Under the pieces are notes generated by a model. That model worked only from the letters and a program-made list of their open reading frames with translations, did not search any database and was not told where the DNA came from. This document shows, piece by piece, positions 6,801 through 28,699 of a DNA stretch of 41,169 bases. Each line of letters begins with the position of its first letter. Position 1 is the stretch's first letter. The translations under genes and the position numbers were made by a program. This DNA comes from an uncultured Dehalococcoidia bacterium (GTDB lineage Bacteria > Chloroflexota > Dehalococcoidia > SM23-28-2), in contig CAYGYF010000002.1 of NCBI GenBank assembly GCA_964354065.1, positions 1-41,169 of the forward strand, written 5' to 3'.

Positions 6801-6882
6801 CATCGCGGGTTCGGCCGCGTTGCTTCGAGCGGTAGGAGGGGAGATGTCCGTAGTCCAGTCGGACTGCACCGTCCGTCACCCC

Positions 6883-7041
6883 TGTGGGGTGCCAAAATGT
6901 CATCCGTATCCGGAGGGTTGACGCAGTGAGCTGCTCGGGCCAGCCTCGAGGCACTATGCCCTCGTCGAGACACAGCACCACGAGTACGAGTGGGTGGCTG
7001 CTTGACCTGCAAAGAGACGGACGGAATATTGGCACCCCACA
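6883..7041 (+). mobile_element. 159-bp IS-derived miniature element (IRL + transposase 3' end + IRR)
   Basis: IRL is TGTGGGGTGCCAAAATGTCATCCG at 6883. The reverse complement of the right end is TGTGGGGTGCCAATATTCCGTCCG, ending at 7041. The interior encodes '...HHEYEWVAA*', the conserved C-terminus of rve-type (IS481/IS3-like) transposases. Confidence 0.7.
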
Positions 7042-12141: not shown

Positions 12142-13152
12142 CTAACCATTGCCTACTCCTGCCACCTCCGGTTGCTTGTAGCGTTCAGCGTTGTCACGAC
12201 AGTGCTGCCGAACGGCCTCCACCCAGCGTTGATACCAGTACCAAAGCCCGCCCAAATCGACGCCGTAGCCCTTGCCCGGATTTTTTGCGTCCAGCGACCT
12301 CCATAGAAGGGTATGCTGGTGCGGACCGAAACCGATATAGCCCTCTTCATGCATGAGTCGCAGGACATCCTTCCTGAGATACTTGGGCTTTTCGACCTCC
12401 TTTTGGACCCAGTATTGCTTGTCGATTTGCTGGGCAAGTTCTGAGCTAGGGGAAATGAACTCGACCACCTGATCAGCCTGGCCTGCCTTGCCGGTGAGTT
12501 TTTGCGCAAATAGGAGTCGATAAGAGTATTGCGGACTATTGAATTCGTCCTGGGTCAGTTGGCCGTCGAAGTCCGCGATGTAAGCTCTTAGACGTTCCGG
12601 GATCTCTTCGGCTGCTGCCAACACCTCCACCTGGTCCCTCGACAGTTCGACGAGCTGCAGACTATAAGTTAGATGCGCGTCTAACCCATATTGCTCGCCA
12701 AACAGTTCCTTCAAATAACGGTTGTAGTTTAGACAGCACGCTTGATAGCGGCCGCTCAGATAGGTGTCCAACCTCAATGTCATCTGGTGCTCGATCTCGT
12801 GCCTGAGCCCGATCAGGAACTTGAGATTGTTCCTCGTGTTCTTGTCCAAGGGGCACCCGTCATCATCAAGACAGCGTTCGAGCTCCCAGTACTTGTACGC
12901 GCCTCGTTTGGTCCGATCGAAGCGCCGCCTCTGGGTGCGTAGGGTGAAGTAGCGGTACTCGACTCCTACCCGGCGGTAGTACGCGTGTAGCAGATACGTC
13001 CAGGCGATGACCATTAAGACAATGAAGGTCTCCGACTTGAACTGGGTCAGCGGGCTGTTGAACGTCTGGACAGCTGACAGGGCCGCCTCCTGTGACTTCG
13101 CCAGAAGTTCAGCCCGGATCGAGTAGACGCGACGGTGACGCTTCATGGACAC
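12142..13152 (-). CDS. DUF3644-like protein with R-x4-H motif (possible HEPN-type)
   Basis: 336-aa ORF at ~53% GC (hand count 12481-12580), against ~65-70% nearby. 'KSQEAALSAVQTFNSPLTQFKSETFIVLMVIAWTYLLHAYY' resembles the DUF3644 N-terminus as I recall it. 'LIGLRHEIEHQ' (12787-12804) is an R-x4-H motif. Start is GTG 13152 or ATG 13146. Confidence 0.55.
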   Translation of the reverse strand: MSMKRHRRVYSIRAELLAKSQEAALSAVQTFNSPLTQFKSETFIVLMVIAWTYLLHAYYRRVGVEYRYFTLRTQRRRFDRTKRGAYKYWELERCLDDDGCPLDKNTRNNLKFLIGLRHEIEHQMTLRLDTYLSGRYQACCLNYNRYLKELFGEQYGLDAHLTYSLQLVELSRDQVEVLAAAEEIPERLRAYIADFDGQLTQDEFNSPQYSYRLLFAQKLTGKAGQADQVVEFISPSSELAQQIDKQYWVQKEVEKPKYLRKDVLRLMHEEGYIGFGPHQHTLLWRSLDAKNPGKGYGVDLGGLWYWYQRWVEAVRQHCRDNAERYKQPEVAGVGNG

Positions 13153-13234: not shown

Positions 13235-14188
13235 TCACTTCGCGCCCTCCGAAGGCCCGAAATCGGTCTTGAGCTGGGAAGCCAGATGGCCAAGAAGCTC
13301 GAGAAGGCGCTCGACCTCGTCGCGATCTAGAGGGTAGAGCCGTCCCTTGAGATGCGAATACCCTGGTACCTTGGCAACAAACTCTTCGTCAACGACGCCT
13401 AGGTTGTGCTCGTAGATGTGGCGCACCTGGAACAGGCGGACCAGATCGTCGAAGCCGTCCGCTCCAAGGCGTGCACCTACCCCAACCCCTCTCGCCTTCT
13501 CGAGGGAACGGTCTAGAGCTGCTATGTTCTGGAAAAGATTCTTGGGCCTGTCCGGGAGGATTTCCGGCCGCGCCTGGCGCAGCTTCTTGCCAAGGGCGTC
13601 AAACGCCGCCACAGCGCTGCCAAGGGCGTCCACCAGGATTGCCTTCACCAATTCCTGGTCGTCAGCCGTCTCCGGGAGGTCAAGCAGATGCAGCCGCCGG
13701 CGACAGACCTCTAGGCACGCATCGAAGACTTCGAATGCATTGAGCTGGCCGCAGTCCGGACAGAAGGCGAAGATGCCAAAGACAGCGAATTCGAGCCCGC
13801 AGGTGTTGCAGGTGACCGGCGTCTCGACATCACTTTCGCGATAGGAGTAGATGCGAAAGCTAGGCGTGCTGACCGAGAATTTGACAGTGATCAGCGAGTT
13901 CCGTGAGGGCCGATTTAAGCTCTCTATGCTGCGTCTGAAGTCCTGGAGCATGGGCTCCAGGACTTGCTTGGCCACAATACTCTTCGCGTATTCCACTTGG
14001 TCCGGCGTGAGGAAGTCGGACGAGTCTGCTCGCGTCCCGCAGTAGGGACATCCGCAATCCTCGATCGGAAGGCCAGTTCCGGGTTTGAGTTTGAAATACT
14101 GGCCGCACTCCGGCGAGGGGCATCGCCGCCCCACCATGCCTTTCTCGTCGGTTGGGAGGCTCACTCGGATAGTCCTGTCACCCATCAT
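13235..14188 (-). CDS. double zinc-ribbon protein with C-terminal R-x4-H (HEPN-like) helical domain
   Basis: 317-aa ORF. It has two CxxC...CxxC units: 'CPSPEC...CPYCG' and 'CNTCG...CPDCG'. C-terminal helical half has 'FQVRHIYEHNLG' (13406-13423). No family recognised. Confidence 0.6.
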   Translation of the reverse strand: MMGDRTIRVSLPTDEKGMVGRRCPSPECGQYFKLKPGTGLPIEDCGCPYCGTRADSSDFLTPDQVEYAKSIVAKQVLEPMLQDFRRSIESLNRPSRNSLITVKFSVSTPSFRIYSYRESDVETPVTCNTCGLEFAVFGIFAFCPDCGQLNAFEVFDACLEVCRRRLHLLDLPETADDQELVKAILVDALGSAVAAFDALGKKLRQARPEILPDRPKNLFQNIAALDRSLEKARGVGVGARLGADGFDDLVRLFQVRHIYEHNLGVVDEEFVAKVPGYSHLKGRLYPLDRDEVERLLELLGHLASQLKTDFGPSEGAK

Positions 14189-14517
14189 TCCCGGCTATCC
14201 CCTGCGGCAGCGGGAGATGCAGCCACCTTTACACGCGCCTGCGCAATCCCTCAGCCTCTATCTCCAGAAGCCCGCCCAGCCGCCGCGCCGCAACGACCCG
14301 CACGGGCTCAGGCCAAAACGGCCCTTCGAGAATGGCACCAGGCGTCGGAAGTCCGTTATTGCCCATCGGTGATCAGTGGGACACGGCCGTTGTCGCATTC
14401 GGATTATACCCATTGGCCCCAAAAGATGATAGCGACCAGAACAGAGTTTCGTGGCCTCGCCACGATTGTACCCGCTGGCGGGCCGCCTAACGGAAGTTGC
14501 GAGCCCCTCGACGTTGG

Positions 14518-14605
14518 CCTGCTCCGCGGGCAGGCTCTCCCCGACCACAGGACGTGGCACAGGGGGAGTCGGGAGGCTGGCGGTTCGTACATCGAAAGAC
14601 TGGAT
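14518..14605 (+). repeat. dispersed repeat 'R2', copy C (full length)
   Basis: CCTGCTCCGCGGGCAGGCTCTC, then 41 nt, then CGGTTCGTACATCGAAAGACTGGA. Its 3' box ends ~35 nt from the DUF499 stop codon (gene 3' side). Confidence 0.75.
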
Positions 14606-14639
14606 GTCACAGGCCTCGCGTAATCTCTGCCAATCGGAG

Positions 14640-17600
14640 TTAGTAACCATCGCCAAATTCTAGCTTCGGGCAGGCCTTCTTTAGCTCTTCGTTCAGTCTC
14701 ATGAGTTGGGCCGCCATCGGCTGGACTCCGTCGCCTAGTTCTAGCCGCAAGAAGAAGCGGAGATTTAGGCCAGCCCCGGTCTTGATGATGTCCGCCAGGC
14801 CATCAACGAGGTCTTGGAGCTCGGCCGGCTCGAGTTCGGCCTCTGTCGTAAAGCCTCGCGGGGGCGGTGGAGGCGGCGGTGCTTCTGTCGGCACGCTGAG
14901 CCGCACCAACGGCGACCCGGACCACTCGCACGGCCATGGCCCGGAGTCCGGCGTGCGCTCCAGATAGCGGGCCCGAATGGCGGAATCGATAGCCGACCGG
15001 ACGGTTGTCCAGGGAAGTGTCTTGCCAACTGTGACCGACAGCGCATCGCTGATGGCTGCTGCAGTGGTGATAGGTTCCCCCCAGGCAGCCTCAAGATTCT
15101 GGGGTAGGACAGCCGTCGCCAGGAGCTCTGCTGGCGGCGGGTGTAGCAGAGCGGTATCACTCAGAACACCGTAGGGGATGTCCTCGCGGTAGATGCTGGC
15201 CGGACCCGCCGTGAGCCACACCGCCCCCGCCCTGACGCCCTCCTGGATGGCGTTCTCGACCACCTCTTTCGCTGCCTTGGGAACAGGGAATGCTTCCTCG
15301 TAGCCCTCGCGCTGCACCTTGCTGACATGCGAGCCGTCGAAGAAGGCCAGCACCTGCCCCACCGAGATCGACCCTCCATCTTCGGGCCAGAGTCCTGGCA
15401 GTGCGCCAGGCACGAGGAGCGTGCCGTCAAGGTCAGTGAGTTCGGCCGCTTCGGGCAGCACCACTTCCAGGTCTCGCTCCCGAAGGTCGCCCTCCGTCGG
15501 CTGAGCCCGCCAGATGGTGCGCACGCTCTTGTCAGGACGGGGAAGCCGCAGCACAAAGTACCCCTGTTCAACACCGAGAGCGAGTGTGTCGGCGATGTCC
15601 TTCTGCCGGAGCATCTTCGGCAAGTGCGGGAACTGAGCGAACGCGGTCACCAAGTCGCTGGCCCGACGTGATGTCTCCTCTTCTCGCCAGAGCGCATAGG
15701 GGCCATCGGGCAGGAGGGCCTCCGGGCTGATAGCGGACTCCTGGATGCGTGAGCGCTTGTCGTTCTTCACAACTTCAAAGATGGGCTCGCCGGTTGCCGT
15801 TACTCGGAAAGCCTCCACCTCGCCCTTGGCCGCAACAGTGACCACAATGCAGTAGGTCTGGACGAGGGCGTCGGGGATCCTCTTCCGCGCCTCATCGGTG
15901 TAACCGGACAGAAGCACCTTGCGCACATCGTCGAAGTCTTTCGCCTCGGGGAGATTCCGAACTTCCTCCCAGCCCATGTAGTCACGCACTCGACTGCGGA
16001 CCAGTTCGAGCCCCTCTCTGGAAGGGACGACCAGCAAGATAGCGTTGCGATAGACGCGCGGACGATCTGGGCCGGTCGTTTCATCGATGAACCGTCGGGA
16101 CTCAGCGCTCGGCTTGCCAGCCTCCGAGGCTGCCCGAGGCCCAAGGACCACGTAGTGGAACTCGCCGTCATCCTGAACGTCTCGGGGATGGTCGGGCAGG
16201 TTGTGCACCCGGGCACCTGCTGCCGCTGCGCCGGCAGTCAAACGCTTCTCCCTGGCAATCCAATCCCGCAGGGTCATTTCGATGACCTCCGGGGGCCCAA
16301 CACGGGCGCAAGCGTCACTGTGCATTTGGCGCAGGTTGGGTCTGGTGCCAAGGCGCCACCACTTGGGAAGCTCCAGCACAGCAGCCCCGGTTCCATCGGT
16401 GGCCCCGGCGATCGCCGCTTCGTCCAAGAAGTAGGAGACCTCCGTCCAGCGACGCAGCGCCTTCTCCAGCTCGATCTTGTCTGGCTTGGCAGCTCCTAGT
16501 AGCACGAGCAAGTCGCGGGTGAGGGCTCGCTGGCCGATAGGCTGGGAATGCAGGAATGTCGCCATCACGGCTTGTTCCACTTCGCGCCCCTTGAGCGCCG
16601 GGAACTCACCCTGAGTGTCCCTCGTCTTGGCCAGCTCCCCTTCCAAGATAGCCGCCCATTCCTGGCGCTTGCCCTCGTACGCCTCTGAAGCCGCAATGGA
16701 GGTCAACTCGCGGGCGGCTTCGGAAAGGCCAGGGCTGCCGGGCGTGTTGAGCAGGACGTTGGCCCCCACAAGTGGCGACGTGTCCCACTTCTCGGCGGCG
16801 CGCAGGGCCATAGCGAAGGTTCGGAGCACGCCTCGGGTGCGCTGAAACCCCTCCAACTGGGTCCATTTGGTGTACAGGGCTTCCGTCAACTCCGGATGGA
16901 ACGGGTAGCTGGCGAGGTAGCGTTCCTCTTCTGCCTGTCGGTTCTTGCGGGTACCCTCGTCCAGCACCGAGATGCCCTCCAGTGCTGCGACGACGTGGGG
17001 CAGGAAGCGTTCCCGGTCGCGGATCGACTCAGCCGTGAAGAACCGTCGCCGGAGGATCTCCGCCACATCTTGCTTCTCGACGGGTTGGACACCCTCCTCC
17101 CTCTCGCGGCGGAAGATAGCGTACAGCTCTTGGGCGATCTCCTTCCCAAGCTCGTCGCTCTTACGCGGCTCAGTGGCGAGGAGGGACGCCACGATGCAGG
17201 CTCGATCCACCTTGGTGGCCGCCTGAGTCAACGCCTGAAAGAAATCCTGGAGGCGGTGCCGCCATTGCGTATCCAGCCCCACCTTCTCGCGGGCGTACAT
17301 CAGCACTTCGTCGATCAGGATGAGGGTGGCGAGCCCGTCGCGAGCCGGCCACTCCAGAAGGTCGCGCACCAGGTTCTCCGCTGGCGGTGTCTCTCGTTCC
17401 TCATCCTTCTCCTCGGCGTTAAGCAGGCGCAGGCCGTCGGCGCCGGCGATCTGGAACGCGAGCACGCTCCACGGGTGCCACAAACGCCGCGCCTCTCCAT
17501 TCGGGCCGTGCACCTCCATCCCCTTTTCCACATCCAGCTTGTCGAAGCAAAGGGAGACGATGCGGGCCTTCGGCGGCGTGATGCCTCCAGCGTGCTGCCG

Positions 17601-17951
17601 GAATTCATGGACCGCCGGAAGGTCCGGCAGGTTATCGGGGTCGTTGACCAGGTGATAGAGAGTGATAAGGGCGTGGGTCTTGCCGCCGCCGTAGGTCAGC
17701 TCCAGTTGGCGCACCGCTTTCTCGTTCTTGCCTGCCAGCCTCTGAAGGACGTCCTTGACGAGCTCCCGCAGGTTGAAGGTAGGGTAGGTCAGGGCGAAGA
17801 ACTCGGAGGGCTGCTGGTAGATCGGGCGCGCTCGCCCCATGACGACGTCGTACAGGTCGGCGGCGAAGATGCTGAGGGTAAGCTCGCCGGAGCGGAGGTC
17901 ATCACGGAGCGTTACGACTTGGTGCCAGGGGGTCGTGGCTGAAGAACTCAT
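14640..17951 (-). CDS. DUF499-family AAA-type ATPase (anti-phage-associated)
   Basis: N-terminus 'PWHQVVTLRDDLRSGELTLSIFAADLYDVV...ELTYGGGKTHALITLYHL' gives Walker A at 17673-17690. 'LILIDEVLMY' is Walker B. The 1103-aa size is typical of the family. Confidence 0.85.
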   Translation of the reverse strand: MSSSATTPWHQVVTLRDDLRSGELTLSIFAADLYDVVMGRARPIYQQPSEFFALTYPTFNLRELVKDVLQRLAGKNEKAVRQLELTYGGGKTHALITLYHLVNDPDNLPDLPAVHEFRQHAGGITPPKARIVSLCFDKLDVEKGMEVHGPNGEARRLWHPWSVLAFQIAGADGLRLLNAEEKDEERETPPAENLVRDLLEWPARDGLATLILIDEVLMYAREKVGLDTQWRHRLQDFFQALTQAATKVDRACIVASLLATEPRKSDELGKEIAQELYAIFRREREEGVQPVEKQDVAEILRRRFFTAESIRDRERFLPHVVAALEGISVLDEGTRKNRQAEEERYLASYPFHPELTEALYTKWTQLEGFQRTRGVLRTFAMALRAAEKWDTSPLVGANVLLNTPGSPGLSEAARELTSIAASEAYEGKRQEWAAILEGELAKTRDTQGEFPALKGREVEQAVMATFLHSQPIGQRALTRDLLVLLGAAKPDKIELEKALRRWTEVSYFLDEAAIAGATDGTGAAVLELPKWWRLGTRPNLRQMHSDACARVGPPEVIEMTLRDWIAREKRLTAGAAAAGARVHNLPDHPRDVQDDGEFHYVVLGPRAASEAGKPSAESRRFIDETTGPDRPRVYRNAILLVVPSREGLELVRSRVRDYMGWEEVRNLPEAKDFDDVRKVLLSGYTDEARKRIPDALVQTYCIVVTVAAKGEVEAFRVTATGEPIFEVVKNDKRSRIQESAISPEALLPDGPYALWREEETSRRASDLVTAFAQFPHLPKMLRQKDIADTLALGVEQGYFVLRLPRPDKSVRTIWRAQPTEGDLRERDLEVVLPEAAELTDLDGTLLVPGALPGLWPEDGGSISVGQVLAFFDGSHVSKVQREGYEEAFPVPKAAKEVVENAIQEGVRAGAVWLTAGPASIYREDIPYGVLSDTALLHPPPAELLATAVLPQNLEAAWGEPITTAAAISDALSVTVGKTLPWTTVRSAIDSAIRARYLERTPDSGPWPCEWSGSPLVRLSVPTEAPPPPPPPRGFTTEAELEPAELQDLVDGLADIIKTGAGLNLRFFLRLELGDGVQPMAAQLMRLNEELKKACPKLEFGDGY

Positions 17952-18607
17952 TGGCTTACCTCCGTCCTAGACGGTTGAGTACGGTGCTGCGCTATTGGCA
18001 GCAGCGCCTGCACGAGCGGGAGAAGCAATTGATACGCGGTCCCCAGGGTAGACTGGTCTGCCAACCGATGCGGGCCCTTGATGGCGTGGAACTGGTTGTT
18101 TCGCACAGTGTACAGCAGGGAGGATGCCACCTCTTGGAGCGACCTCCTCTTGTCTTCGGTGGATGCCAGTGCAGGCGCTACAGCACTGACGTGGGCCACA
18201 CAGTCGCGAGGATCCTTCCCGAGGAAGTAGTCTCTCATGTTCACGATCCCTTGGACGGGTGCGCCCGCGTCCGGCCCTACTACGAATTGCTCCGTGGGCG
18301 CGTCATTGAGGCTGCTGATAAGCTCCACGTATTCCTCGGTGTAGAGCCTTTCGATGTCGTCCGTGGGAACTTGATCCAAGGCGGCCCGTATCTTGTCCGC
18401 CTCCCTGCCGTCGAACCGAGCAAGGAGGCAGTAGAGGTTGTTGAAGGCGACGAAGAGGTACAGGTAGGCAGTAAACGGGTCCGGATCCCTGTTCGTTCGG
18501 TTGAAGAACCGGTGGGCCCGTCGGTAGCTTTCCCGGGTCGACTGCAGATATGCATCGCCCCAATAGGCAATGCGCCGCGTCTGCAGGTCTTCAGCGCGTC
18601 GGTTCAT
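17948..18607 (-). CDS. small alpha-helical protein with RNxxxH (HEPN-like) motif
   Basis: Start set to ATG 18607, which overlaps the methyltransferase stop as ATGA. Its own stop overlaps the DUF499 ATG as ATGA (17948-17951). 'LYLFVAFNNLYCLLA' and 'LLYTVRNNQFHAIKG' (18087-18104) fit the HEPN two-helix plus Rx4-6H pattern. Confidence 0.65.
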   Translation of the reverse strand: MNRRAEDLQTRRIAYWGDAYLQSTRESYRRAHRFFNRTNRDPDPFTAYLYLFVAFNNLYCLLARFDGREADKIRAALDQVPTDDIERLYTEEYVELISSLNDAPTEQFVVGPDAGAPVQGIVNMRDYFLGKDPRDCVAHVSAVAPALASTEDKRRSLQEVASSLLYTVRNNQFHAIKGPHRLADQSTLGTAYQLLLPLVQALLPIAQHRTQPSRTEVSQ

Positions 18608-21600
18608 TCCACCCTCTCGGCAGTGTCTGTCATCAGCCGCATCTGCGGATGGGCGCCGCGGGCGGTCACGTGGTTCATGATCGTCTCCAATAGCGCCCGC
18701 TCGTCCGGCTGGTTGTCTTTGCGCGCCAGCTCGATCAGGGCCTGGAGCAGACGCGGGAAGAGGGCGTTTCCGCGAAGGCCCCGGTCCTCGATGTAGGCGT
18801 CCACCTTCTGGACGTCTCCCTCCCGCCAGAGGCGCATGATGCGGTGCACCTGGTCGATGAGCGGCGCCGGCCGGCCTTCCGCGTCCAATCCCAGCGACTT
18901 GCCACGGCGGTGGTCCCAGCGCTTGAGCCGGACCTTGCTGCCGCTGCCCCGCTCCTCCGGCTCCTCCTCGGCGTCTTCGCTCTCCTCTTCTTCCTCCTCT
19001 TCGGTCTCGGCGGAGCCGCTGGTGAAGGCGACGAGTTCGTAGCGGTCGGCCAGGTCGCGGTCGCGGAGGTTGCACGACTGGGCATAAAGGATGCACGCTC
19101 CGACCGGCGCCTCGGTGAAGCCGAAGTCGTGGCGGTGGAGTAGGTAGTAGATGGTGGCGGTGTCCAGGCCGGCGGCCTCCTCGCTCTCGCCGTCGCGGGA
19201 GAGGACGCGGCCGACCACGTAATCCACCACGATGCGCCGGACGTGGTGCAGGAACTCCGAGACGGTGAGGATGGCGTTGGGCTCGTCCGCCTTCTTGACG
19301 ACGGGGTGCTTGCTGTAGGCCTCCAGAGCGGGGCCGGTGGCGGCCCAGACGAAGTCCGGCCCGCGGATGCCGGCGTCCCAGAAGTCTCGCAGGCGGTCGT
19401 AGATCTTGGAGCGCATCTCCTCCAGCACCTGGTTGTCCCAGCCGGGCCGCGCCGTCTCCGGCCGCTTCCGGCAGACGAGCCAGACGGAGGAAGCGAGGGC
19501 GGCTGAGGTCAATGCCCTTGTTCGGCTACTGAGTTCTGTTTGAATGGGCCAGCTTCCATCAACCACGAAGCCAGCTCGGATGATCGAAGAAACTAGGGTT
19601 TCCCACGCATTTGGCTGCTTGTTGGCGAAAGCAACGACCAGGACGCCCTGAGGTGTCAGCAAGTCCTGGCAGACCCGGAAAGCACGGAACATGCCTCCTT
19701 CATAGGCAGCTCTGGACTCCTCAGCGTCTCCACCGAAGCGGCTAGCATCGTCAATGAGTTCACCATCCTGTCTTTGGTGATCCCACTTGGGGCCCAGCGT
19801 CTCAGAGAACGCTGTATCCATTTCGGGAGATATGCCTGCAAGGGTCCGGCGGAGCCAGATGTAGAAGAAGTCCATCGCGTCGGAATACGGAATGGCGTCG
19901 TAGTAGGGAGGGTCAGTTACGACGACGTCAAGTTCCTCAGTGGCATTAGGGAGCAGAGCAGATTGACAACGGGCTTTGGGCGTAATGCTGCTTGTTGACG
20001 CCGCTCTGAGTGATGTACGGACAGCAGCGACCGTCGATTCCAACATTGAAAGGTAGCTTCCCGCATGCTGCCCAGGGGGCACGCTCTCAGCAAAGTCCCA
20101 AGTGATCGGCAATGCATAGCGAGAGAACACCTGGCGGATTTGTTCGTTGCCAACATGCCAGGTGCACAAAGTGCATGCCAGGTGGACGGCTTTTGAGAGG
20201 TTGGCCGTCAGATACGCGACGACCGCCTCCACCCACTCCGGCGGATAGCCCTCGGCGCGCATGGCGTCGCGGGCGGCGCGGGTGTGCTTCACGAAGGTCC
20301 CCAGGGCAAGGAGCTGGCGCGGGGTGAACAGCTTGTACCACTGGTCGAAGCCGTATAGCGGCACGCGGAAGCCCAGGGCCTCCTTGGTTGGCAGGGGCTC
20401 CGTCGGCAGGCCAAAGGGCACGTCCCGGAAGGTCGCCTCCACGCAGCCGCCGGCATCCTCGGCGGCGCGCAGTTCGTCGGGCGCCGGCAGGCTGTACTCT
20501 TTGCCCTTGGCGCCGTCCACCACCACAGACGTCATCTGCGTGCCCAGGCGGCCGGCCAGCCCTTCGGCCCGGATGTCATCCAAGGTCATGGCCACGGTGC
20601 CGGGGCCGCCGCAGACGGGGCACCAGGCGCCGGAGCGGGACATGGTGCCCTGGCCCACGCGGCGGTCGTGAGCCCGCTGCTGGGCGGCGTTGCCGCCCAC
20701 CTTCGGCTCGTCCACCACCTCAAAGTCCACGCCGGAACGGTCGGCCCGCGGGCGCATCTTCAGCCGGAAGCGTTTCTTCTCCTTGTGGCAGAGCCAGAGG
20801 GTCTTGAGGAGGGGCAGGGTGGCGCGACAGTTCTTACAGGTGACGGTGCGGGCCCACAGGTAGGCCACGGTGGTCTTGTCGTCCACGGTGGGGTAGAAGC
20901 GTTCCAGATCGGCCCTGGCCCGCTGGAGCACCCAGTGGCCGCAGGCGCGCACGTGCCAGGCCAGGTGAGCCTCCGGCGCCTCCAACATCGGTGCTTGGTG
21001 GCCTTCGTCCTGACGGCCGCGGCCCTTCTTCGGCCCGCGGGTCTGCTTCAGGAACTCCGCCATGAACTCCGGCGACTCCAGGGCGAACCGGGGCAGCGGC
21101 CTGGTCTGGCCGGCCAGTCGCTGCGGGTACTCGAGGGTGCATTTGAGGATGAACCAGGCGACGGGGTTAATGTCGATGGCGGTGGCCTCGCAACCCAGGC
21201 GCATCGCCTCCAGGGGGATGGCCCCGCCCCCGGCGAAGGGGTCGAGGACCCGCGGCGGGCGGCCGTAGACCTTGCGGATCTCCTCCCGGAAGAACTCCAG
21301 GTCCGGCCCGTTCTCGCGCCCCCAGTGCAGGATGCCGCCGACAGTCTCCTCCTTCACCACGGGCACGTCACGGCCGCCGACCCGCTTCGTGGTGTTCTTG
21401 GTCACGACCTTGCCGGCCAGACGCTCCAGGAGGCGCTGGCGCTCCGTGTCGTTACCGGGGTCAGGCAGCAGCGTAGCGATGAGGGCTGCGCGGCAAGCGG
21501 CCAGGGGTCGCCGCGCCGGCCAGATGTGGAGCGTCGAGATGTGCCCGTGGCGCACGTTCTTCTCGTGCACGGAGTCGAGGGACGCCTGCTTCAGGGGGAA

Positions 21601-21651
21601 GGCGACTTCGATGAGGCGCGGGCAATCGTCAGTCATGAGGTGCACCTTCAA
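18604..21651 (-). CDS. DUF1156-domain DNA methyltransferase (N6-A/N4-C type, anti-phage-associated)
   Basis: N-terminus 'LIEVAFPLKQASLDSVHEKNVRHGHISTLHIWPARRPLAACRA' is the DUF1156 signature. 'LDPFAGGGAIPLEA' (AdoMet motif I) is at ~21211-21249. 'VVVTDPPYYD' (motif IV) has DPPY at 19903-19914. There is a Cys cluster 'CKNC...CPVCG'. Confidence 0.85.
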   Translation of the reverse strand: MKVHLMTDDCPRLIEVAFPLKQASLDSVHEKNVRHGHISTLHIWPARRPLAACRAALIATLLPDPGNDTERQRLLERLAGKVVTKNTTKRVGGRDVPVVKEETVGGILHWGRENGPDLEFFREEIRKVYGRPPRVLDPFAGGGAIPLEAMRLGCEATAIDINPVAWFILKCTLEYPQRLAGQTRPLPRFALESPEFMAEFLKQTRGPKKGRGRQDEGHQAPMLEAPEAHLAWHVRACGHWVLQRARADLERFYPTVDDKTTVAYLWARTVTCKNCRATLPLLKTLWLCHKEKKRFRLKMRPRADRSGVDFEVVDEPKVGGNAAQQRAHDRRVGQGTMSRSGAWCPVCGGPGTVAMTLDDIRAEGLAGRLGTQMTSVVVDGAKGKEYSLPAPDELRAAEDAGGCVEATFRDVPFGLPTEPLPTKEALGFRVPLYGFDQWYKLFTPRQLLALGTFVKHTRAARDAMRAEGYPPEWVEAVVAYLTANLSKAVHLACTLCTWHVGNEQIRQVFSRYALPITWDFAESVPPGQHAGSYLSMLESTVAAVRTSLRAASTSSITPKARCQSALLPNATEELDVVVTDPPYYDAIPYSDAMDFFYIWLRRTLAGISPEMDTAFSETLGPKWDHQRQDGELIDDASRFGGDAEESRAAYEGGMFRAFRVCQDLLTPQGVLVVAFANKQPNAWETLVSSIIRAGFVVDGSWPIQTELSSRTRALTSAALASSVWLVCRKRPETARPGWDNQVLEEMRSKIYDRLRDFWDAGIRGPDFVWAATGPALEAYSKHPVVKKADEPNAILTVSEFLHHVRRIVVDYVVGRVLSRDGESEEAAGLDTATIYYLLHRHDFGFTEAPVGACILYAQSCNLRDRDLADRYELVAFTSGSAETEEEEEEESEDAEEEPEERGSGSKVRLKRWDHRRGKSLGLDAEGRPAPLIDQVHRIMRLWREGDVQKVDAYIEDRGLRGNALFPRLLQALIELARKDNQPDERALLETIMNHVTARGAHPQMRLMTDTAERVE

Positions 21652-23578
21652 GTGCGCGGAGGAAGTCGTCCCCTGAGATAGTGCCCGGTTTCCGGGGTCC
21701 TAGTTCGTCGATGAACCGCGACGCAACGGTATTTGCATACGTGGGCCCCCCGCCCCTCACTCGCGCACCCATCCGATGGGCGAGTCCGCGCGGTAACCTG
21801 ACAACGCTGGAGATTATAAGCGTGGCTCGTGCGCGCGTTATAGCGACGTAGAAGAGCCGGCGCTGCTCCTGCAGCGACCTTTCGCTATCGGCCGGCGGCA
21901 GGTCATCGTCAATGAACGGAATCAAGCCCTCAATGCAACCGACGATGGTGACCAAGTCAGCGGTCAAGCCCTTCGACTTATGAAGGCTCATCACGCGAAC
22001 ATAATCAACGTCAGTGGGTAGCTCCGGCTGTGTCACGGCGGTTCTAATTTCTTCGAGCAGAAGGCGCCCATCATAGTCTGGCTGTCCAATTGACGCGCCA
22101 ATGAACCGAAACGGCTCAGCCCAACCGACCGCTGGTGGAAATAGCGCGTCCAACAGGTCCTGGCCGCGAAGATCGGCCATGCTGGCCAACTGCTTGTTTG
22201 CGTCGCAGTATCGACCGACCATGTCGCCGATGTATGGGAGCTTGAACTCGCCGGCAACGATCCGGTCCAAAGCCTGTCTCGGAGACTCGCCGGTGTTCTC
22301 GCAGTGAGCGCGCAGGCGCGCCCAGCCGTTCTTACGCAGGGAGTCGCTTCCGAAGCCACACCAACACCGCAGCGCCACCCGGTCGGCAGGATTGGCGAGA
22401 AGCGCAAGCAAGACAAATGCCTGTTGGGCTTGGCTTGCCTCAAGCTCCTTGGGGTTGCCGTCCAGTGCTTCCTCATGAAAGAAGCTGTGGGCCGGTGTCC
22501 CCATGTTGTTCAGCGCGTCCCGAATCCTGTAGCCCAGCTGTCGCCGTGGAGACAGGATGAGCACGCCCCCAGATTCCACGTCTCCACCCTTGACACGACT
22601 GTCCACAAACCTTGCGATCCCCTCTACCTCGTCGTCCAAGCTGGTCCACTGCACTACGTAGACTTCTCCGGGAGGTGCTCCGGCCAGTGGGACGAGAATC
22701 CTTGCGCTGCGCGTGGGGTTGTACTGAATCAGGTGATTTGCCATTTCGACAATGGCAGTTGGGCATCTCCTGCACTCATCAAGGCTCTCATCGGCGGTTG
22801 CCGGGTGAGTTTGGTCAAATGTCGAAATGCCCTCAGGATGGGCGTACTTGAATGAGTAAATGGATTGATCCTCATCTCCGACGACGGTAAAGGCACCGCC
22901 ATCGGCAAGGATATCGAGGAGTGCCTGCTCTGCCCGGTTAAGGTCTTGATACTCGTCTACGAGGACATGCGCGAAGCGGGGCCGCAGCGGCGATGCCGGG
23001 TTCCCCCGCAGGAATCGAAGCGTCTCCGGAATAAGCTCGCCGACGAGCATCGCCTCGTGGAATTGAAGCCATGACAGCAGTTGGCTTTGAAACGCCCGAT
23101 CCAAGGGATCCGTAGGCCAGCCGGGTTCGTCGGACTGAAGACGCGCCCACGCAGAATTGAATGCGTGCAGCCTTCTGTTGCAGTCGCGCACTCCTCCGAA
23201 TGTATCCCCGCATAGGTCTTCAAGCAAGAATCGCTCCTCGAACTTCATCAGAGGTCGAGGAACTCTGGCGGTGAGCTGGAGCACTTCTCCTCGACCAAGA
23301 AGGCGAAAGCAGAAAGAGTGAATGGTCCCGGATTGCACGCGGCCTGCGTTGGGCATGGACAGCTTCAACAGTTCCTTCCGGAGGTCATTGGCGGCAGTGC
23401 GCGTGAAACTGCAGGCAAAGATCGCGTCAGGCTTGGCACCCTCTTGAAGGAGACGCGCCACTCGCCGGATCAAAGAGAACGTCTTGCCAGTCCCGGGCCC
23501 GGCCATAACTCGAAGGGGGGACCGATCTGAACTCGCGATTCGCCTCGCCTTGTCGCCCAAGCCATCATGCCAATCCAT
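21629..23578 (-). CDS. UvrD/Rep-like superfamily-1 helicase
   Basis: 'VMAGPGTGKTF' (motif I, ~23478-23504), 'VLVDEYQDLN' (motif II), and C-terminal 'MSLHKSKGLTAD...LFYVAITRAR' (motifs V/VI). It overlaps the methyltransferase start by 23 nt and starts 3 nt after the SNF2 gene stop. Confidence 0.8.
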   Translation of the reverse strand: MDWHDGLGDKARRIASSDRSPLRVMAGPGTGKTFSLIRRVARLLQEGAKPDAIFACSFTRTAANDLRKELLKLSMPNAGRVQSGTIHSFCFRLLGRGEVLQLTARVPRPLMKFEERFLLEDLCGDTFGGVRDCNRRLHAFNSAWARLQSDEPGWPTDPLDRAFQSQLLSWLQFHEAMLVGELIPETLRFLRGNPASPLRPRFAHVLVDEYQDLNRAEQALLDILADGGAFTVVGDEDQSIYSFKYAHPEGISTFDQTHPATADESLDECRRCPTAIVEMANHLIQYNPTRSARILVPLAGAPPGEVYVVQWTSLDDEVEGIARFVDSRVKGGDVESGGVLILSPRRQLGYRIRDALNNMGTPAHSFFHEEALDGNPKELEASQAQQAFVLLALLANPADRVALRCWCGFGSDSLRKNGWARLRAHCENTGESPRQALDRIVAGEFKLPYIGDMVGRYCDANKQLASMADLRGQDLLDALFPPAVGWAEPFRFIGASIGQPDYDGRLLLEEIRTAVTQPELPTDVDYVRVMSLHKSKGLTADLVTIVGCIEGLIPFIDDDLPPADSERSLQEQRRLFYVAITRARATLIISSVVRLPRGLAHRMGARVRGGGPTYANTVASRFIDELGPRKPGTISGDDFLRALEGAPHD

Positions 23579-23581
23579 GGC

Positions 23582-26500
23582 TCAACCCTCCGCCGCCTGA
23601 AAGATGGCGGCCTCGTCAATGATGACGCCGCCTCTGGCCCGTACGAGTAGCTTCGCGAAGGGGTCCTGCACTCGCAGCAGCCGCGGGTGGGTAGCCGCGC
23701 AGTCGTACACCACGTAGAGCCAGTACTGGTCGCGCAGGTTGGCGGCTTTGGCCCACTCGTTCTCGGAGAGCTGGACATCGCCCACGGCCCGTCGGCCTTT
23801 CACCTCGATGCAGCGCTCCTCGCCGTTCGGCCGGTGGGAGAGCAGGTCAAAGCCTATCCTCTGGAGAGGGTCGGACACATCAAGGACGGTGGCACTCAGA
23901 GACTCCTCGTAAGCCCGGGCCACGCGCATGGCAATCAGCTCGATCTCGCGGTCGTGGCGCTCCCGCTCCTCCGGATCGCTGGACGGCAACACCAGCGCGT
24001 GGGCCAGGAAGCTGACTCCGTTGGCCTCCACAAGTTCGGGCTCCCGGCGCAGTATTGCGAGCGCGCGTTCGCGCTGAGCGGCCAAGGCAGCCTGCTTTCT
24101 GCGCACGTCCTCCAGCGCTCGTTGAGCAGAGGCATCGCCGGCGTCCGCTCGCTCCCTCAGCTTCACGCGTGTGGCGGCGAGTTCGGCCTCCTGATAGTCG
24201 AAGCCGGCCTGAAGGAATGCCTCTCGCTCCTGCACCGACGCGGTGAGCGACGCCGCCAAACGCTCCGCCGCTGGCCTGGCCACCGTCTCCTCCAAGCGCA
24301 GCCTGGCAGCTTCGAGCGCTTTGGTGATCTGATCTATCGACGGCAGGGCTGTAGGGGCCACCGCCTTCGCAAGCTGCAGCACCATGGGCAATTCAACAGG
24401 ACACGTGTGCACCGCGTTATCGAAGGTCTGAGTGATGGCGACCAGCCGTACATCTAGCATCTGCTCCGCCCCGAAGGCTTCAGGGTAGGCTGGGTCGGCC
24501 CGTTGGACTGTAGAGACGAGGGCTAGGTGGTAAAGGTAGGGCTCGGTGGCATAGGGATCGATGAACGCAGCGCCGCGCAAGGCGTCCGGCCCGAACCGCT
24601 CAGAAAAGAAGGCTCGGTAGCGGTCGAAGAAGGGTTCACCAGGTCGTAGGAACAGGACATCCTCGGTCGGATCTGGCTTGTTTACGGTAAGGGGAAGAGG
24701 TACTCCCTGAGTCGCGTCCTCCATCGCCAAGGCGAGACGGAGAGGCAACCGTTCAAGGTGGAACTGCCCCTCGAGATCCCCCTCGATATTGACTCCAAGG
24801 AAAGGGGCTGATTTTTCCAAGAAGTGCCTGACATAGCCGGGAAGGAGCCGGTGTAGCTGGTCCTGGTCTCGTTGCGCTCGGAGCGTCGGGAGCTGGGAGG
24901 CCACATCGCCACCCGTGCCCCTTAGCTTTGCATCGGCCTCCTCGATGGCACGAACCTGTTCCTTGGTAAGCGTGCCTTCGATCCTAGCGATGCTCTCATC
25001 CTCTGCCCCTTCCACCACCGCTCGCATGATCAGTTCGCTGAGGGAGACATCCTGGAACTGGCGGCCAATCACGTCGAAAACCTTATCGGAGCCCAGCTCT
25101 CTCCGGATGTTTTCCAGCTTGTCCAGCAGGGTCTTGAGGACGCGGCCCTCGCGGGTCTTGCCAGCGACCAAATTGATGAGGGCGACAGGGTCGTGGCGCT
25201 GCTTGTACCGGTGGATCCGGCCCATGCGCTGCTCGATACGAGCCGGGTTCCAGGGGATATCGTAGTTCACCATGATCCAGCAGAACTGGAGGTTGATGCC
25301 CTCCCCCGCGGCGTCTGTCCCTACCATGAAGCGGCAGCGGGTTCGGAACTCCTCCATCTGGGCCTCCCGGTCCCGGTAGGGCATCCCGCCGTGGATGCGC
25401 GCGATCTCGCCTGTGTAACCCATCCCTTCCAACCGCCGGACCAGGAACTCCATGGTGTCCCGATGCTCAGTGAATATCAGGAGCTTCTCGCCCTTGAATC
25501 GCTCATCCTGGATGACTTCCCGGAGTTTCTCGAACTTGGACTCCTCTCCCGCATCGTAGGCGCGCTGCGCGAGATCCAGGAGCTCCACCACCTCCAGGCG
25601 CTCAGCCTCAAGCTCCGCCAGTGTCATGGCCGCGGTGGCGCCCATCGCTGACTGTTCGGCGAGATCCCGCTCCTCCTGCCCATCCTCCGCTCCCTCCTCG
25701 TCGCTGGTCATCTCCTCTTCGAAGTCGCGAACCCGGAGGCGTGCCTGCTCTGCCGCAAGGCCCTCTTCCGTGAGCTCTCGACTCGCGAAGGCCACGATGT
25801 ATTCGTCCAGCCGGTCGCGGCGGCGCTCAAGCGACCGAAGCAGGGCCCACGTGGAGCTCGCGGCACGTCGCTGTAGCACACTCATCGCCAATCGAGCCGC
25901 GGAGCGGTTCAGCACCCGGGCTCGGTTGAAGTAGGTGCGGACGTAGGACGTCAGCTCGTCGTAGAGTTCCTGCTCAAGGTGGGACAGCTCATAGCTGGCC
26001 GTGGTGCTCTCCCTCGACGGATAGATACGAGTGCCATCGAAACGAACCATCTCCTCCTTGGTGCGGCGGAGGAAGCGCGAGGCCCGGGCTTCGGACGGAA
26101 AGCTGTGGAACGCATCGACCGTCCTCAGTAGGTTCGGCTCTAGGAGTCGCCACAAGGCGTAGTAGGGGAATTCCTTCCCCATGTGAGGCGTAGCGGTTAG
26201 CAGTAGTAGATGGGGCGCGTGCCAGGAGAGGTGCCGCGGCGGCCGGCTCTGTTGCAGCGGCTCCGCCCCAGCCAGCAGTTCCGCCAGCTTGTAGCGCTCC
26301 GTGGTGTCGTAGGTGCCATCCGCATTCCTCATAGCGGCCAGCTTGTGAGCCTCGTCGAAGGCCACTAGGTCATAGGGGATGGTGTCGGCTTGAGCCAATC
26401 GTTCGAAGGCTCTGTCGCCAGCCAGGGTGTCGATGCTGACCAGTGCGAGGTCGCTCCCTGCGCCCGCGAAAGGGTTATCCGTTCGGCAGTCGAAGCCCGT

Positions 26501-27124
26501 GACTTCCCGGCAATACAAAGAGAACAGAGTCCGCATCTCCCGCTTCCAGTTCCCCACGAGGCCCGCCGGAGACACGATGAGCACACGACGGACTAGGTGT
26601 CGGCTAAGCATCTCCCGTATGTACAGGCCCGCCATGATGGTCTTTCCCGCACCGGCGTCGTCAGCGAGGAGCATGCGCAGGCGGGGCTGCGACAGCATGG
26701 CCTGATAGACGGCGATGATCTGATGGGGGAGCGGATCGATGATGGCGGTCTCCGTGCCGAAGATGGGGCTGAACAAGTGACCGTAGCGAAGCCTCTCTCC
26801 CTCAACGAAGAGACGGACCAGATCAGGTTCGGCTCTGAAGTCGGGGGTCGACGCGACGCTCGCTGCGGAATATACGCCTGCGGGCTCATGCACCATGGCA
26901 CGCTGAGATCTGGTGAACATCGCGCGCGAGGAGGTTGCAGCGGCGGCTGCGAGGGTGCTCAGCGCCTTGATGGCCAACCTATTGGGGCGGGATTGGCCGT
27001 TTTCCCACCGACTCACGGTGACGACGGTCACGCCCAAGCGGTCAGCGAGCTGGCTCTGCGTCAGACCGAGCTCCGCTCGAAGAGCTTTGATCCACTCAGG
27101 CGAACCGACAACGGCGCTGACCAT
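23582..27124 (-). CDS. XRE-HTH / SNF2-like helicase / DUF3883 (PD-(D/E)xK-like) fusion protein
   Basis: Start set at ATG 27124 ('[44 protein letters not shown]', an XRE HTH). '[10 protein letters not shown]' is at 26639-26662 and 'FDEAHKL' at 26338-26358. '[23 protein letters not shown]' is motif VI. C-terminus '[36 protein letters not shown]' is DUF3883-like. Confidence 0.8.
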   Translation of the reverse strand: [1180 protein letters not shown]

Positions 27125-27320
27125 TTGGCCCCGCCAGGAAAACCGACTTAACAAACTATAACACCGGCTCGCCGGCGATTCAACCGGTGGCCGTCCAATA
27201 AGGTTGCAGACCCCCCAACGATGGCCTGGATCAGGGCAGGGGCTCTGGGCGAGGAGACAAGGGGCACGAGCGCCTGCTCGATGAGCATCGGCTCTCAGAG
27301 TGAGACGGACGCCTCTCGCG

Positions 27321-27776
27321 TCATAGTCCCATCTCGCTACCGTCGGCGAAGAGGGCCTTTCGTTGGCCATGTGACAAGTAGATGATGACCTCCCACATGA
27401 GGCGATACGAAAGCCTCATGGAAAGAAAGGCATCAATCCCCTCAAGCAGATCGTTGCGGTTTCCCTTCGGGGAGTGGATGACAACGATGCCAGGCCGGTC
27501 ATGGAGCAGACCGTCTTTCCAGACCCTTCTGGCCCGCCGCCAATCCCTAGTCACGAAGACTAGAGCCATCTGCCGTATCCATGCCAGAAAGGCCAGGTCG
27601 TCGGACGTGTTCACCGGGGCGTTCTCTGCGGTCACGACGGGATAGCCCAACTCGGCCAGGCGCTCGGCAACGGGCAGCAAGCCCTGGTCCGTGCAGAACG
27701 GCAGACGCTTTTGCTTGCCAGCCCGACGTTTCCTGAAACGTGAATATTCCTGTTTCTTGAGTTCTAGCTTCCCCAC
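27321..27776 (-). CDS. PIN-like (DUF5615/Mut7-C-like) protein
   Basis: 'FCTDQGLLPVAERLAELGYPVVTAENAPVNTSDDLAFLAWIRQMALVFVTRDWRR...GIVVI' matches the D-x-N...T-x-D layout of DUF5615-type PIN-like proteins. GTG start. No DUF433-like partner seen upstream. Confidence 0.5.
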   Translation of the reverse strand: MGKLELKKQEYSRFRKRRAGKQKRLPFCTDQGLLPVAERLAELGYPVVTAENAPVNTSDDLAFLAWIRQMALVFVTRDWRRARRVWKDGLLHDRPGIVVIHSPKGNRNDLLEGIDAFLSMRLSYRLMWEVIIYLSHGQRKALFADGSEMGL

Positions 27777-27840
27777 AGCGACATACTAGCGCGCGCGTTA
27801 GGGGTAATCAAGATAGTCACCTTATCAATAACGCCGTGTT

Positions 27841-27910
27841 CGATCTCCTGCTCCGTCGGCAGGTGATCACCTTGTCACAGGGTCGGTCAGGCGGCAGCCT
27901 TCAAGGGAGG
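27841..27910 (+). repeat. dispersed repeat 'R2', subfamily-2 copy D
   Basis: CGATCTCCTGCTCCGTCGGCAGGTGATCACCTTGTCACAGGGTCGGTCAGGCGGCAGCCTTCAAGGGAGG. The 5' box is shared with copy A. The remainder is ~80% identical to the 31680 copy. Confidence 0.65.
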
Positions 27911-28059
27911 TAGAGGAGGAACCCGAGCTGGACCTGGCGGCTGGGAGGTTTAGTTCTATCACCTTCCATTACCTCTGCTTATGGGGGCGTTGCTGGCACC
28001 CGGTTCAGGCGGTCACTTGATGGCAGTATTCGTCCGCACGCACGTGGGGGCGGACCGCC

Positions 28060-28350
28060 GTGAAAGGGGCGCGCAGGCCGCCGCGCGGGGAAAACCTCAC
28101 CGAGCTTCTTCGGAAGTATTGTGAGCGGGACCGGCCGCTGAAAGGTGAGACCTAGGCGCAGATTTCGCGGGACGCATGGCTCGACGAGAGCTACGTGTCC
28201 AGGCTCTTCTCCGGTGAGCGCACCAATCCGAGCCGCGGCGCTCTGGTTCTTCTGGGTGGTTGGGGCCTGGAGCTAGCGGTAGAGGAAGTGGACGAGCTGT
28301 TGATGGCGGCGGACTACAAGCCGCTAGTCCTTCCGGCAAGCATTCGGTAG
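28060..28350 (+). pseudogene. XRE-type HTH regulator interrupted by an in-frame TAG
   Basis: GTG 28060 reads '...ENLTELLRKYCERDRPLKGET', then TAG at 28153-28155, then 'AQISRDAWLDESYVSRLFSGERTNPSRGALVLLGGWGLELAVEEVDELLMAADYKPL'. Read through, this is a continuous HTH plus 'GER-NPSR...LL-AAGY' family pattern. Confidence 0.5.
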
Positions 28351-28699
28351 TGCCGCTCGGAAGGCTGGCCGGGCCCAGGCCCTCCCTTCGTTTCTCCGAG
28401 GGCGGGACCCGCCGGGATTGCCACAAGGGGTCCTGCTGCGCGCTCGTCGATTCATGACCGGGGAGACGCGTATAATCCGACTTGAATTACTCTCCCTGTC
28501 GGTCTACGAAGAGAACACCCAGGCTCCGGCGCTGGATGTTAGTCTGCGGAGGTGGCCATGGCTGTAGGCGACGCTGGAAAGGTTCGGTTTCGGTGCCAAT
28601 TTCTCCTAGAGGATTACCAGGAACGGCGTTCGGAGATAAGGCATTATGAGACCCTCCTGCACCGGATAACGGAGTTTGCCAGTAGCTTCCTGAAGGGCC

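Follow-up and report, generated by a model that had tools for sequence, protein, structure and literature searches.

A predicted Hma defence operon from an uncultured Dehalococcoidia bacterium carries an embedded UvrD-like helicase and an unannotated RNNxFHG protein

Introduction

Payne et al. introduced the Hma system (for helicase, methylase and ATPase) in 2021 (PMC8565338), and an association of DUF1156, DUF499 and helicase genes had been noted earlier by Anantharaman et al. in 2013 (PMC3710099) and Bell et al. in 2020 (PMC7641849). In 2026, loci of this kind were renamed Type-1 DUF499-centred BREX-related (BR) systems (PMC12839542). Here we describe a five-gene operon on a 41,169-nucleotide stretch of DNA from an uncultured Dehalococcoidia bacterium (contig CAYGYF010000002.1 of assembly GCA_964354065.1; this whole stretch is called the window below). 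In this operon, genes assigned to HmaA, HmaB and HmaC are interspersed with genes for a UvrD-like superfamily 1 (SF1) helicase and for a 219-amino acid protein that carries the motif RNNQFH.

The mechanism of Hma and BREX-related systems is largely obscure, and HmaA, a nickase, is the only component examined by experiment. In Halomonas meridiana, HmaA alone defends against T4, and both its helicase and its nickase activities are required (PMC11232893). Genes embedded between the core genes have been reported for 62.7% of 1,485 Hma systems (Payne 2024 preprint) and, in a second study, for 66.5% (Liu 2024).

We consider it likely that the operon is a composite defence locus, in which a Hma core is joined by a UvrD accessory dedicated to Hma and by an autonomous, HEPN-like passenger. 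Its main new elements are, in order of interest, a UvrD clade restricted to Hma and the unannotated RNNxFHG family.

Results and Discussion

The core of the operon is assigned to Hma

Searches with PADLOC-DB models assigned three of the five proteins to HmaA (E = 4e-160), HmaB (6e-115) and HmaC (8e-80), and by these profile matches the core is that of the named Hma system, alias Type-1 DUF499-centred BR system. As in described Hma systems, the same three core proteins are encoded in the same order on one strand, with embedded genes between them. One gene separates A from B and another separates B from C, and all five are on the minus strand. This layout conforms to the definition in the Payne 2024 preprint, by which single copies of the three core genes share a strand and no more than three embedded genes intervene between one core gene and the next.

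A preliminary description of this DNA had proposed that the DUF1156 methylase, the DUF499 ATPase and the SNF2-nuclease form a recognized restriction-modification (R-M)/BREX-like defence association, and PADLOC, Pfam and the literature bear this out. All of its domain calls (HTH_3, SNF2-rel, Helicase_C, NOV_C, which equals DUF3883, UvrD-helicase, DUF1156 and DUF499) were recovered by Pfam profile searches, including DUF499 and DUF1156, on whose detection by such searches it had made its reading depend. It had seen the UvrD and RNxxxH genes as extras added to this core, which agrees with their distribution across loci. Its judgement that the variant architecture is uncharacterized holds for the exact five-gene layout, which was seen in none of the ~140 related loci, but not for the core, which is already named, nor for the presence of embedded genes, which is the documented norm.

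HmaA comprises an N-terminal XRE-type helix-turn-helix (HTH), a SNF2 (superfamily 2) helicase and a C-terminal PD-(D/E)xK nuclease (NOV_C/DUF3883). Its Pfam matches are to HTH_3 (3e-13, beginning at about residue 12 as counted from the ATG at 27124), SNF2-rel_dom (5e-8), Helicase_C (4e-25) and NOV_C (6.6e-18), and its motifs are GAGKT, DEAH, TAT and QRMGR, with D...EVK in the nuclease region. The HTH sets this HmaA apart from that of other Hma systems and marks a sub-lineage. HmaB is an N6-adenine-type methyltransferase with an inserted target-recognition region, an N-terminal DUF1156 match (8e-18), motif I (DPFAGGG) at residue 132 and motif IV (DPPY) at residue 575. HmaC matches DUF499 (6e-21) and is an ORC/Cdc6-like AAA+ ATPase with Walker A (GGGKT) at residue 88 and Walker B (LILIDE) at residue 210; its PADLOC match starts at residue 7. 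Unlike HmaC of many Type-1 BR systems, it lacks an N-terminal HEPN fusion. Catalytic motifs are intact in all four enzymes of the operon (HmaA, UvrD, HmaB and HmaC).

For comparison we used the closest relatives of HmaC (54-75% identity), which are encoded at 80 genome loci in many phyla. These loci preserve the gene order A-B-C on a single strand, and the nearest HmaC relatives are from Dehalococcoidia/Chloroflexota.

A UvrD clade that resides between HmaA and HmaB

The SF1 helicase is of the plain UvrD/PcrA type (Pfam UvrD-helicase, 2.5e-39, and also UvrD_C), has no fused nuclease, and retains the motifs GPGTGKT, DEYQD and VAITRA. Its nearest solved structures by sequence are the housekeeping-type proteins UvrD1, UvrD and PcrA. 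A metagenome scan for its relatives comprised 46 loci, and homologues of at least 58% identity with sufficient flanking sequence were taken as informative. Of 18 loci informative for the upstream side, 15 have HmaA there, and of 19 informative for the downstream side, 16 have HmaB. In most such loci the helicase gene follows HmaA by ~129 bp and precedes HmaB by ~30 bp. Both contexts of two homologues at 62-64% identity are inside Hma loci. Among the 80 genome loci, one (L045; L numbers denote the loci compared) has a UvrD gene in the interval between HmaA and HmaB (the A/B slot), and a distant match (41% identity) was the only relative seen on plasmids.

In a neighbour-joining tree the UvrDs embedded in Hma group together, and a sister clade sits in other defence-like contexts. 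One embedding locus, L094, was confirmed by PADLOC as a canonical Hma (HmaA 2e-193, HmaB 1e-126, HmaC 5e-133). The window UvrD is 60-64% identical to the copies of this canonical lineage, whereas HmaA, HmaB and HmaC of the window are only 30-34% identical to their counterparts. The GC content at third codon positions (GC3) of the helicase gene is 0.657, compared with 0.77 for HmaA, 0.84 for HmaB and 0.76 for HmaC, which places it 0.10-0.18 below its neighbours, and a local GC dip to 0.593 at 22001-23000 coincides with it. These values are a compositional sign of recent acquisition, and the GC3 deficit together with the identity gap to the hma genes points to lateral exchange between Hma lineages. 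The clade thus far resides almost exclusively in the interval from HmaA to HmaB, and this applies to two Hma lineages with only 30-34% identity to each other. Given its lower GC3, the helicase gene looks like a portable, Hma-dedicated accessory.

The loci with the order HmaA-UvrD-HmaB-HmaC (e.g. L092-L104 and L109) resemble the window in having the same UvrD clade (59-64% identity) in the same slot, co-oriented and closely spaced. They differ in that their HmaA lacks the HTH and their interval between HmaB and HmaC (the B/C slot) holds no RNNQFH protein. No name for these four-gene loci was found in the searchable literature. UvrD is not mentioned as a Hma or BR component in the searchable text of the two Hma papers and the 2026 BREX survey, and the searchable supplements of the Payne 2024 preprint and of the BREX 2026 paper gave only P-loop-level background for it as an embedded family.

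Both inserts might instead be independent single-gene defences for which Hma serves as a landing pad ('guilt-by-embedding'), with the UvrD comparable to Nhi and having no functional link to Hma. Hma slots do host unrelated known systems, including Septu, PARIS, Gabija and GmrSD. The UvrD has moved between Hma lineages of ~30% identity, so it cannot depend on finely co-evolved contacts, and sister-clade UvrDs occur in other defence contexts, next to Ymh-HEPN, HSDR_N and NucS-like genes. However, known embedded systems are far commoner outside Hma than inside (Payne 2024 preprint), whereas this UvrD clade shows the reverse in the informative loci counted above, usually at fixed spacing. In addition, the helicase has no effector domain of its own, and no dedicated PADLOC v2 model exists for it, the best being a partial match to GajB. 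On balance we judge the landing-pad explanation unlikely and prefer to regard the UvrD as a Hma-dedicated accessory.

A bolder extension of the preferred reading is that the UvrD defines an unrecognized four-component Hma subtype, in which it would be a dedicated, laterally exchangeable partner that processes the nicks made by HmaA, giving a two-motor restriction mechanism akin to the MutH/UvrD pathway, and that the RNNxFHG proteins are perhaps a new stand-alone family of HEPN-like toxins or defence proteins. This combined proposal is tentative, and we would put its chances somewhat below even.

Outside Hma, sister-clade UvrDs adjoin small nuclease-type genes, namely Ymh-HEPN (L115, 564-3315), HSDR_N (L118, 3419-6284) and a NucS-like gene (L114, 2570-5321), and these pairs may be two-gene helicase-nuclease modules. 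In L112 (1518-17350), a sister-clade UvrD is part of a larger island with an Eco57I-like methylase, a Schlafen/AlbA_2 protein and a DEAD-MZB-REase giant. The closest UvrD relative for which any flanking sequence is available is in L140 (2503-4878), from a Chloroflexi metagenome-assembled genome. There, the UvrD (88% identical) begins 3 nt after what remains of a truncated HmaA, a stand-alone NOV_C fragment of 146 aa with 68% identity to the C-terminus of HmaA. Hydrogenase-maturation genes immediately precede this pair, and the UvrD is the last gene on the contig. This locus looks like a decayed relative of the window operon.

The RNNQFH protein as a probable passenger

Searches with Pfam, PADLOC and NCBIfam models gave the RNNQFH protein no match at family threshold; a single weak match, to MauJ (E = 0.007), lies below the cut-off. 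This link to MauJ was set aside as not interpretable, and one paper containing both terms, MauJ and HEPN, was unrelated. The protein has 36 close homologues. When 1.84 billion representative proteins were searched with a profile, 133 relatives came up, all of at most 335 aa and none fused to DUF499. Two conserved motifs, W/F-x-A-F-N-N and L-L-Y-T-V-R-N-N-x-F-H-G, are largely kept in the distant relatives that were read. FNN and RNNQFH (residues 169-174 of the window protein) are invariant in the close family, the latter across 31 aligned homologues, and RNNxFHG is kept in the majority of those distant relatives, with substitutions at the third or fifth position in a few.

The RNNQFH sequence conforms to the HEPN motif Rx4-6H, in which a polar residue (N, D or H) directly follows the arginine, and the HEPN arrangement that includes this polar residue has been described (PMC3710099). 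An AlphaFold2 model (predicted local distance difference test score, pLDDT, of 90.8) is all-helical, with long helices at 2-35, 44-62, 150-175 and 182-210. An insert (63-149) separates the second and third of these, and RNNQFH lies at the end of the third, penultimate one. As read from the secondary-structure string of the model, the predicted topology appears to fit the published HEPN description. The protein had at first been called a HEPN-motif protein, but no profile or fold match to a HEPN family was obtained. Pfam HEPN families gave no match except for one distant relative (E = 0.05 to HEPN_RiboL-PSP). Because profile and structural matches to any HEPN family are lacking, we use the label HEPN-like rather than HEPN.

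In the window the gene separates HmaB from HmaC. Three further distinct loci (L005, L006/L007 and L008) belong to the same HTH-HmaA lineage and carry a relative at the corresponding position, and their A/B slots hold other cargo than that of the window. The gene also occurs solo, among housekeeping or mobile-element genes, in six loci (L001, L002, L004, L138, L139 and L141; 46-74% identity). None of the 80 genome loci carries it, and a family-profile hmmsearch combined with a motif scan found no divergent homologue in the 580-660-bp B/C gaps of other loci. Because it occurs both in the B/C slot and alone, the gene is probably an autonomous mobile passenger that sometimes lands in this slot of Hma.

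Two described groups invite comparison. The HEPN-fused DUF499 ATPases (Ava_2192 type, Swt1/Abi2 HEPN clade; PMC3710099) recall the position of an Rx4H protein directly upstream of, and coupled to, the DUF499 ATPase of the window, and HEC-08 (DUF3644 HEPN; Payne 2024 preprint) illustrates that HEPN-type effectors recur as Hma/BR add-ons. In contrast to both, the window protein is encoded by a separate gene, has no detectable similarity to known HEPN families, and is also found solo outside Hma.

A second alternative is that the operon encodes an obligate five-component machine. It would be a new type of system, whose Hma-like complex has the SF1 helicase and the RNxxxH protein as integral parts. 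The very tight coupling (a 3-nt spacer, an 8-nt overlap and two ATGA overlaps) and the single promoter would suit such a machine. So would the placement of the small protein where many Type-1 BR systems fuse HEPN to the DUF499 N-terminus (PMC12839542, PMC3710099), which would fit a split HEPN-DUF499. However, tight coupling is usual for embedded cargo too, and the occurrence of either extra gene is tied neither to the other nor to the core (0 of 80 genome loci for the small protein and 1 of 80 for UvrD), with the small protein standing alone in six non-Hma contexts. The idea of a split HEPN-DUF499 is likewise unsupported at HMMER sensitivity, since the relatives among the 1.84 billion proteins are all short and none is a DUF499 fusion. 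We rate the five-component machine as very improbable, and the reading of the operon as a Hma core with an accessory and a passenger is retained below.

Insertion slots of Hma loci

The HmaA/HmaB and HmaB/HmaC positions that are filled in the window are known insertion hotspots. Among related genome loci, the A/B gap is at least 300 bp in 28 of 34 and the B/C gap is at least 560 bp in 38 of 63 (range 23 bp to 7.9 kb), with varied content in both. This occupancy agrees with the published values of 62.7% and 66.5%. Since about two-thirds of described Hma loci hold embedded genes, a variant layout is to be expected and is no sign of a new system.

What distinguishes the window from other Hma loci is the identity of its embedded genes, a UvrD-type SF1 helicase and the unannotated RNNQFH protein. 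Neither is among HEC-01 to HEC-09 in the main text of the Payne 2024 preprint, and no dedicated PADLOC v2 model matched the UvrD clade or the RNNQFH protein. The possibility had been raised earlier that this layout is a common, named subtype, but none of the ~140 related loci shows the exact five-gene combination. UvrD without the small protein occurs in ~20 Hma loci, and the small protein without UvrD occurs in three distinct ones. The combination is best explained by a known scaffold that has taken up two genes independently.

Other cargo was also observed in these slots. A recurrent pair of open reading frames (ORFs) of ~420 aa and ~211-230 aa occupies the B/C slot of L019, L026, L035, L036, L044 and L070, which represent several phyla, and the B/C slot of L071 holds only the ~227-aa member. 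These pairs are probably ABC-ATPase-plus-partner cassettes of the HEC-01/02/03 type (Payne 2024, Liu 2024). The A/B slot can also hold several cargoes at once, as in L089, where a DarT-Macro (DarTG) toxin-antitoxin pair (5234-6974) shares the interval from HmaA to HmaB with a UvrD and a SMC-like ATPase.

Operon structure and expression signals

The ORF listing and a reading of the junctions show five co-directional genes on the minus strand at 14640-27124, with a 3-nt spacer or overlaps between neighbours (Table 1). The preliminary description had taken these tightly packed genes to be one expression unit, and the ORF list, the junctions and the sole promoter agree with that view. At 23582/23578, the 3-nt spacing reported between the HmaA stop and the UvrD start was found to read TGA-GCC-ATG, and the ATGA overlaps between methylase and small protein (18604-18607) and between small protein and ATPase (17948-17951) were also confirmed. 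The 23-nt overlap proposed between UvrD and methylase (TTG at 21651) needs correction, as an overlap of 8 nt (ATGACTGA, with ATG at 21636) is more likely. This ATG is preferred because homologues align from residue 1 of the version that begins with it.

Table 1. Positions of the operon genes and of the elements upstream of them in the window.
Feature	Position	Strand	Remarks
HmaA	23582..27124	-	1180 aa from ATG at 27124
UvrD-like SF1 helicase	21629..23578	-	649 aa; HmaA/HmaB slot
HmaB, DUF1156 methyltransferase	18604..21636	-	1010 aa
RNNQFH protein	17948..18607	-	219 aa; HmaB/HmaC slot
HmaC, DUF499 ATPase	14640..17951	-	1103 aa
Sigma-70-like promoter	27155..27183	-	TTGAAT-17-TATAGT, TG before -10; ~30 nt upstream of HmaA ATG
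Conserved 14-nt element TTATAGTTTGTTAA	27148..27161	-	overlaps -10 hexamer of HmaA promoter

Ribosome-binding sequences of the GGAGG type precede three of the four internal starts (UvrD, small protein and HmaC), and none is evident upstream of the methylase start. The promoter listed in Table 1 is the only sigma-70-like match in 14000-28700, and no convincing internal terminator was seen in the operon. A longer HmaA that starts at 27370 (the maximal ORF) was considered unlikely, as the promoter falls within the extension. A 132-aa ORF at 14258-14656 that overlaps the HmaC stop was rejected as a sixth coupled gene; it has an atypical GC content at second codon positions (0.586), a codon composition like that of non-coding DNA, and no homologue in any locus.

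The HTH-HmaA sub-lineage can be traced in 11 of the 17 related loci with a visible N-terminus, which align across the HTH region. The element TTATAGTTTGTTAA is present once in the window, against 0.04 occurrences expected by chance, and once each just upstream of HTH-HmaA in L005 (522-535), L008 (320-333), L009 (1290-1303) and L012 (58-71); it is absent from the other 137 loci. More distant loci have palindromes of the GATATA/TATATC type at its position. The element may serve as an operator for the HTH at the N-terminus of HmaA, and it is a reasonable inference that this HTH would autoregulate the single promoter through it. In L005 the element abuts the start codon, which suggests that the mRNA of that locus is leaderless or has a very short leader.

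A possible mechanism and its significance

In the mechanism that we propose, HmaB would methylate host DNA, HmaC, as an ORC/Cdc6-like AAA+ ATPase, would sense foreign DNA or assemble on it, and HmaA, a SNF2 translocase with a PD-(D/E)xK nickase domain, would restrict it. An R-M-like model of this kind has been put forward for the core (PMC12839542, PMC3710099). The XRE-type HTH of HmaA probably autoregulates the sole promoter through the 14-nt element. UvrD-family helicases load at nicks, and UvrD unwinds DNA after nicking by MutH. Since HmaA is a nickase, the embedded UvrD would most plausibly load at the nicks that HmaA makes and unwind the target, as UvrD does after MutH, and would in this way extend the damage from the nick. 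The small protein, with a presumed RNase activity, is probably a back-up abortive-infection effector that is co-expressed by translational coupling.

Several points weigh against this reading of the operon. The near-exclusive residence of the UvrD clade in Hma is drawn from ~25 metagenomic loci chosen by peptide-pattern matching, a sampling that may be biased. Five high-identity UvrD loci (L090, L110, L121, L122 and L125) have no Hma neighbour, and several of these have short flanks or possibly other cargo between UvrD and the hma genes. For the small protein, the sole recurrent weak family match is to MauJ (E ~0.003-0.08); Foldseek searches against PDB and BFVD gave nothing at E < 0.5, hmmsearch against PDB gave no match, and hhalign against Ymh-HEPN and the DUF3644 protein of the window gave probabilities near 0.1. 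Conservation of the element TTATAGTTTGTTAA does not extend past the closest loci, and the element could be a mere conserved -10/leader region. In the sole Hma system tested, overexpression of HmaB left T4 sensitivity unchanged (PMC11232893), and because HmaA alone defended and HmaB overexpression had no effect, the R-M-like logic of the core is unproven. Finally, the support for the function of this locus comes entirely from sequence analysis.

Current views are not overturned by these data, as the locus is an ordinary member of a named family within a defence island. A UvrD clade that is confined almost wholly to the hmaA-hmaB interval and swapped between distant Hma lineages does offer a concrete mechanistic handle, and it suggests that nick-initiated unwinding contributes to DNA destruction in some Hma systems. 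It also refines the notion of 'guilt-by-embedding', in that some embedded genes may be accessories specific to the host system and not independent systems. The RNNQFH family is a candidate single-gene effector that is missed by current defence-finder model sets.

Relation to other defence systems

The preliminary description had also suggested that the operon might be part of the eight-gene MADS system and that its genes belong to the NCBI 'anti-phage-associated' families, and neither suggestion held. The sole mad match in the operon is to mad2 (3e-7) and covers 35 residues of the S-adenosylmethionine (SAM)-binding motif of HmaB; the remaining operon proteins match none of the other families in the PADLOC mad1-mad8 set, that of the kinase-like gene included. 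The DUF1156, DUF499 and PLD equivalogs of the 'anti-phage-associated' set score 165, 81.5 and 133 bits against cut-offs of 1000, 1200 and 1100 bits, respectively. These NCBIfam models describe a sister subtype, PLD/DUF3780 or Type-2 BR, whose methylase and ATPase families are homologous to those of the window, but to which a DUF3780 gene and a PLD/HKD-helicase belong. Membership in this subtype was rejected, as the scores are far under the cut-offs and the operon has no DUF3780 and no PLD/HKD domain.

DISARM was rejected because the match to the DrmD equivalog, at 335 bits, falls short of the 610-bit cut-off and DrmA, DrmB, DrmC, DrmE and DrmMI are absent from the operon. Type-3 BREX was rejected on PADLOC/NCBIfam scores and missing partner genes. 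Gabija resembles the operon in that GajB and the window SF1 helicase are both UvrD-family proteins recruited to defence. The GajB match (9e-51) is nevertheless partial, amounting to 171 bits over segments, and no operon protein matches GajA (an OLD-family ABC ATPase with TOPRIM); the SbcC-like protein encoded at 7270-10023 gives GajA matches only at P-loop level (near 1e-3). The weak PADLOC matches to mad2, GajB and DrmD (1.6e-99 for HmaA) could be read as signs of a MADS part or variant, or of a Gabija or DISARM relative, but with the partner genes absent and the HmaA, HmaB and HmaC models scoring far higher, we discount this explanation almost completely.

The surrounding defence island

A complete Azaca system was identified by PADLOC at 32577-39013 on the plus strand, with ZacA (DUF6361; 2.5e-135), ZacB (PLD-like; 2.3e-172) and ZacC (helicase; E = 0), and because this system is present beside the Hma operon we regard the window as a defence island. 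Just downstream of the Hma operon, two minus-strand genes (12142-13152 and 13235-14188) encode a DUF3644 (HEPN) protein and a neighbouring 317-aa protein. The former matches the PADLOC candidate PDC-S19 (3.8e-154), and the N-terminus of the latter matches PDC-M14A (1e-15). DUF3644 is the N-terminal domain of HEC-08 (Payne 2024 preprint).

At 7270-11147 (minus strand), a gene for a SbcC/Rad50-like ATPase (917 aa; AAA_23 and SMC_N, with a weak LmuB match) overlaps by 4 nt a gene for a SbcD/Mre11-like metallophosphoesterase (375 aa), and the two could represent a housekeeping SbcCD pair or else nucleases associated with defence. A 912-aa HEAT-repeat protein is encoded at 28700-31438 (minus strand). 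A GpA-type terminase large subunit (39086-40729, minus strand) and an IrrE/M78 peptidase-like gene (1744-2643, minus strand) hint at prophage or mobile-element remnants that flank the island.

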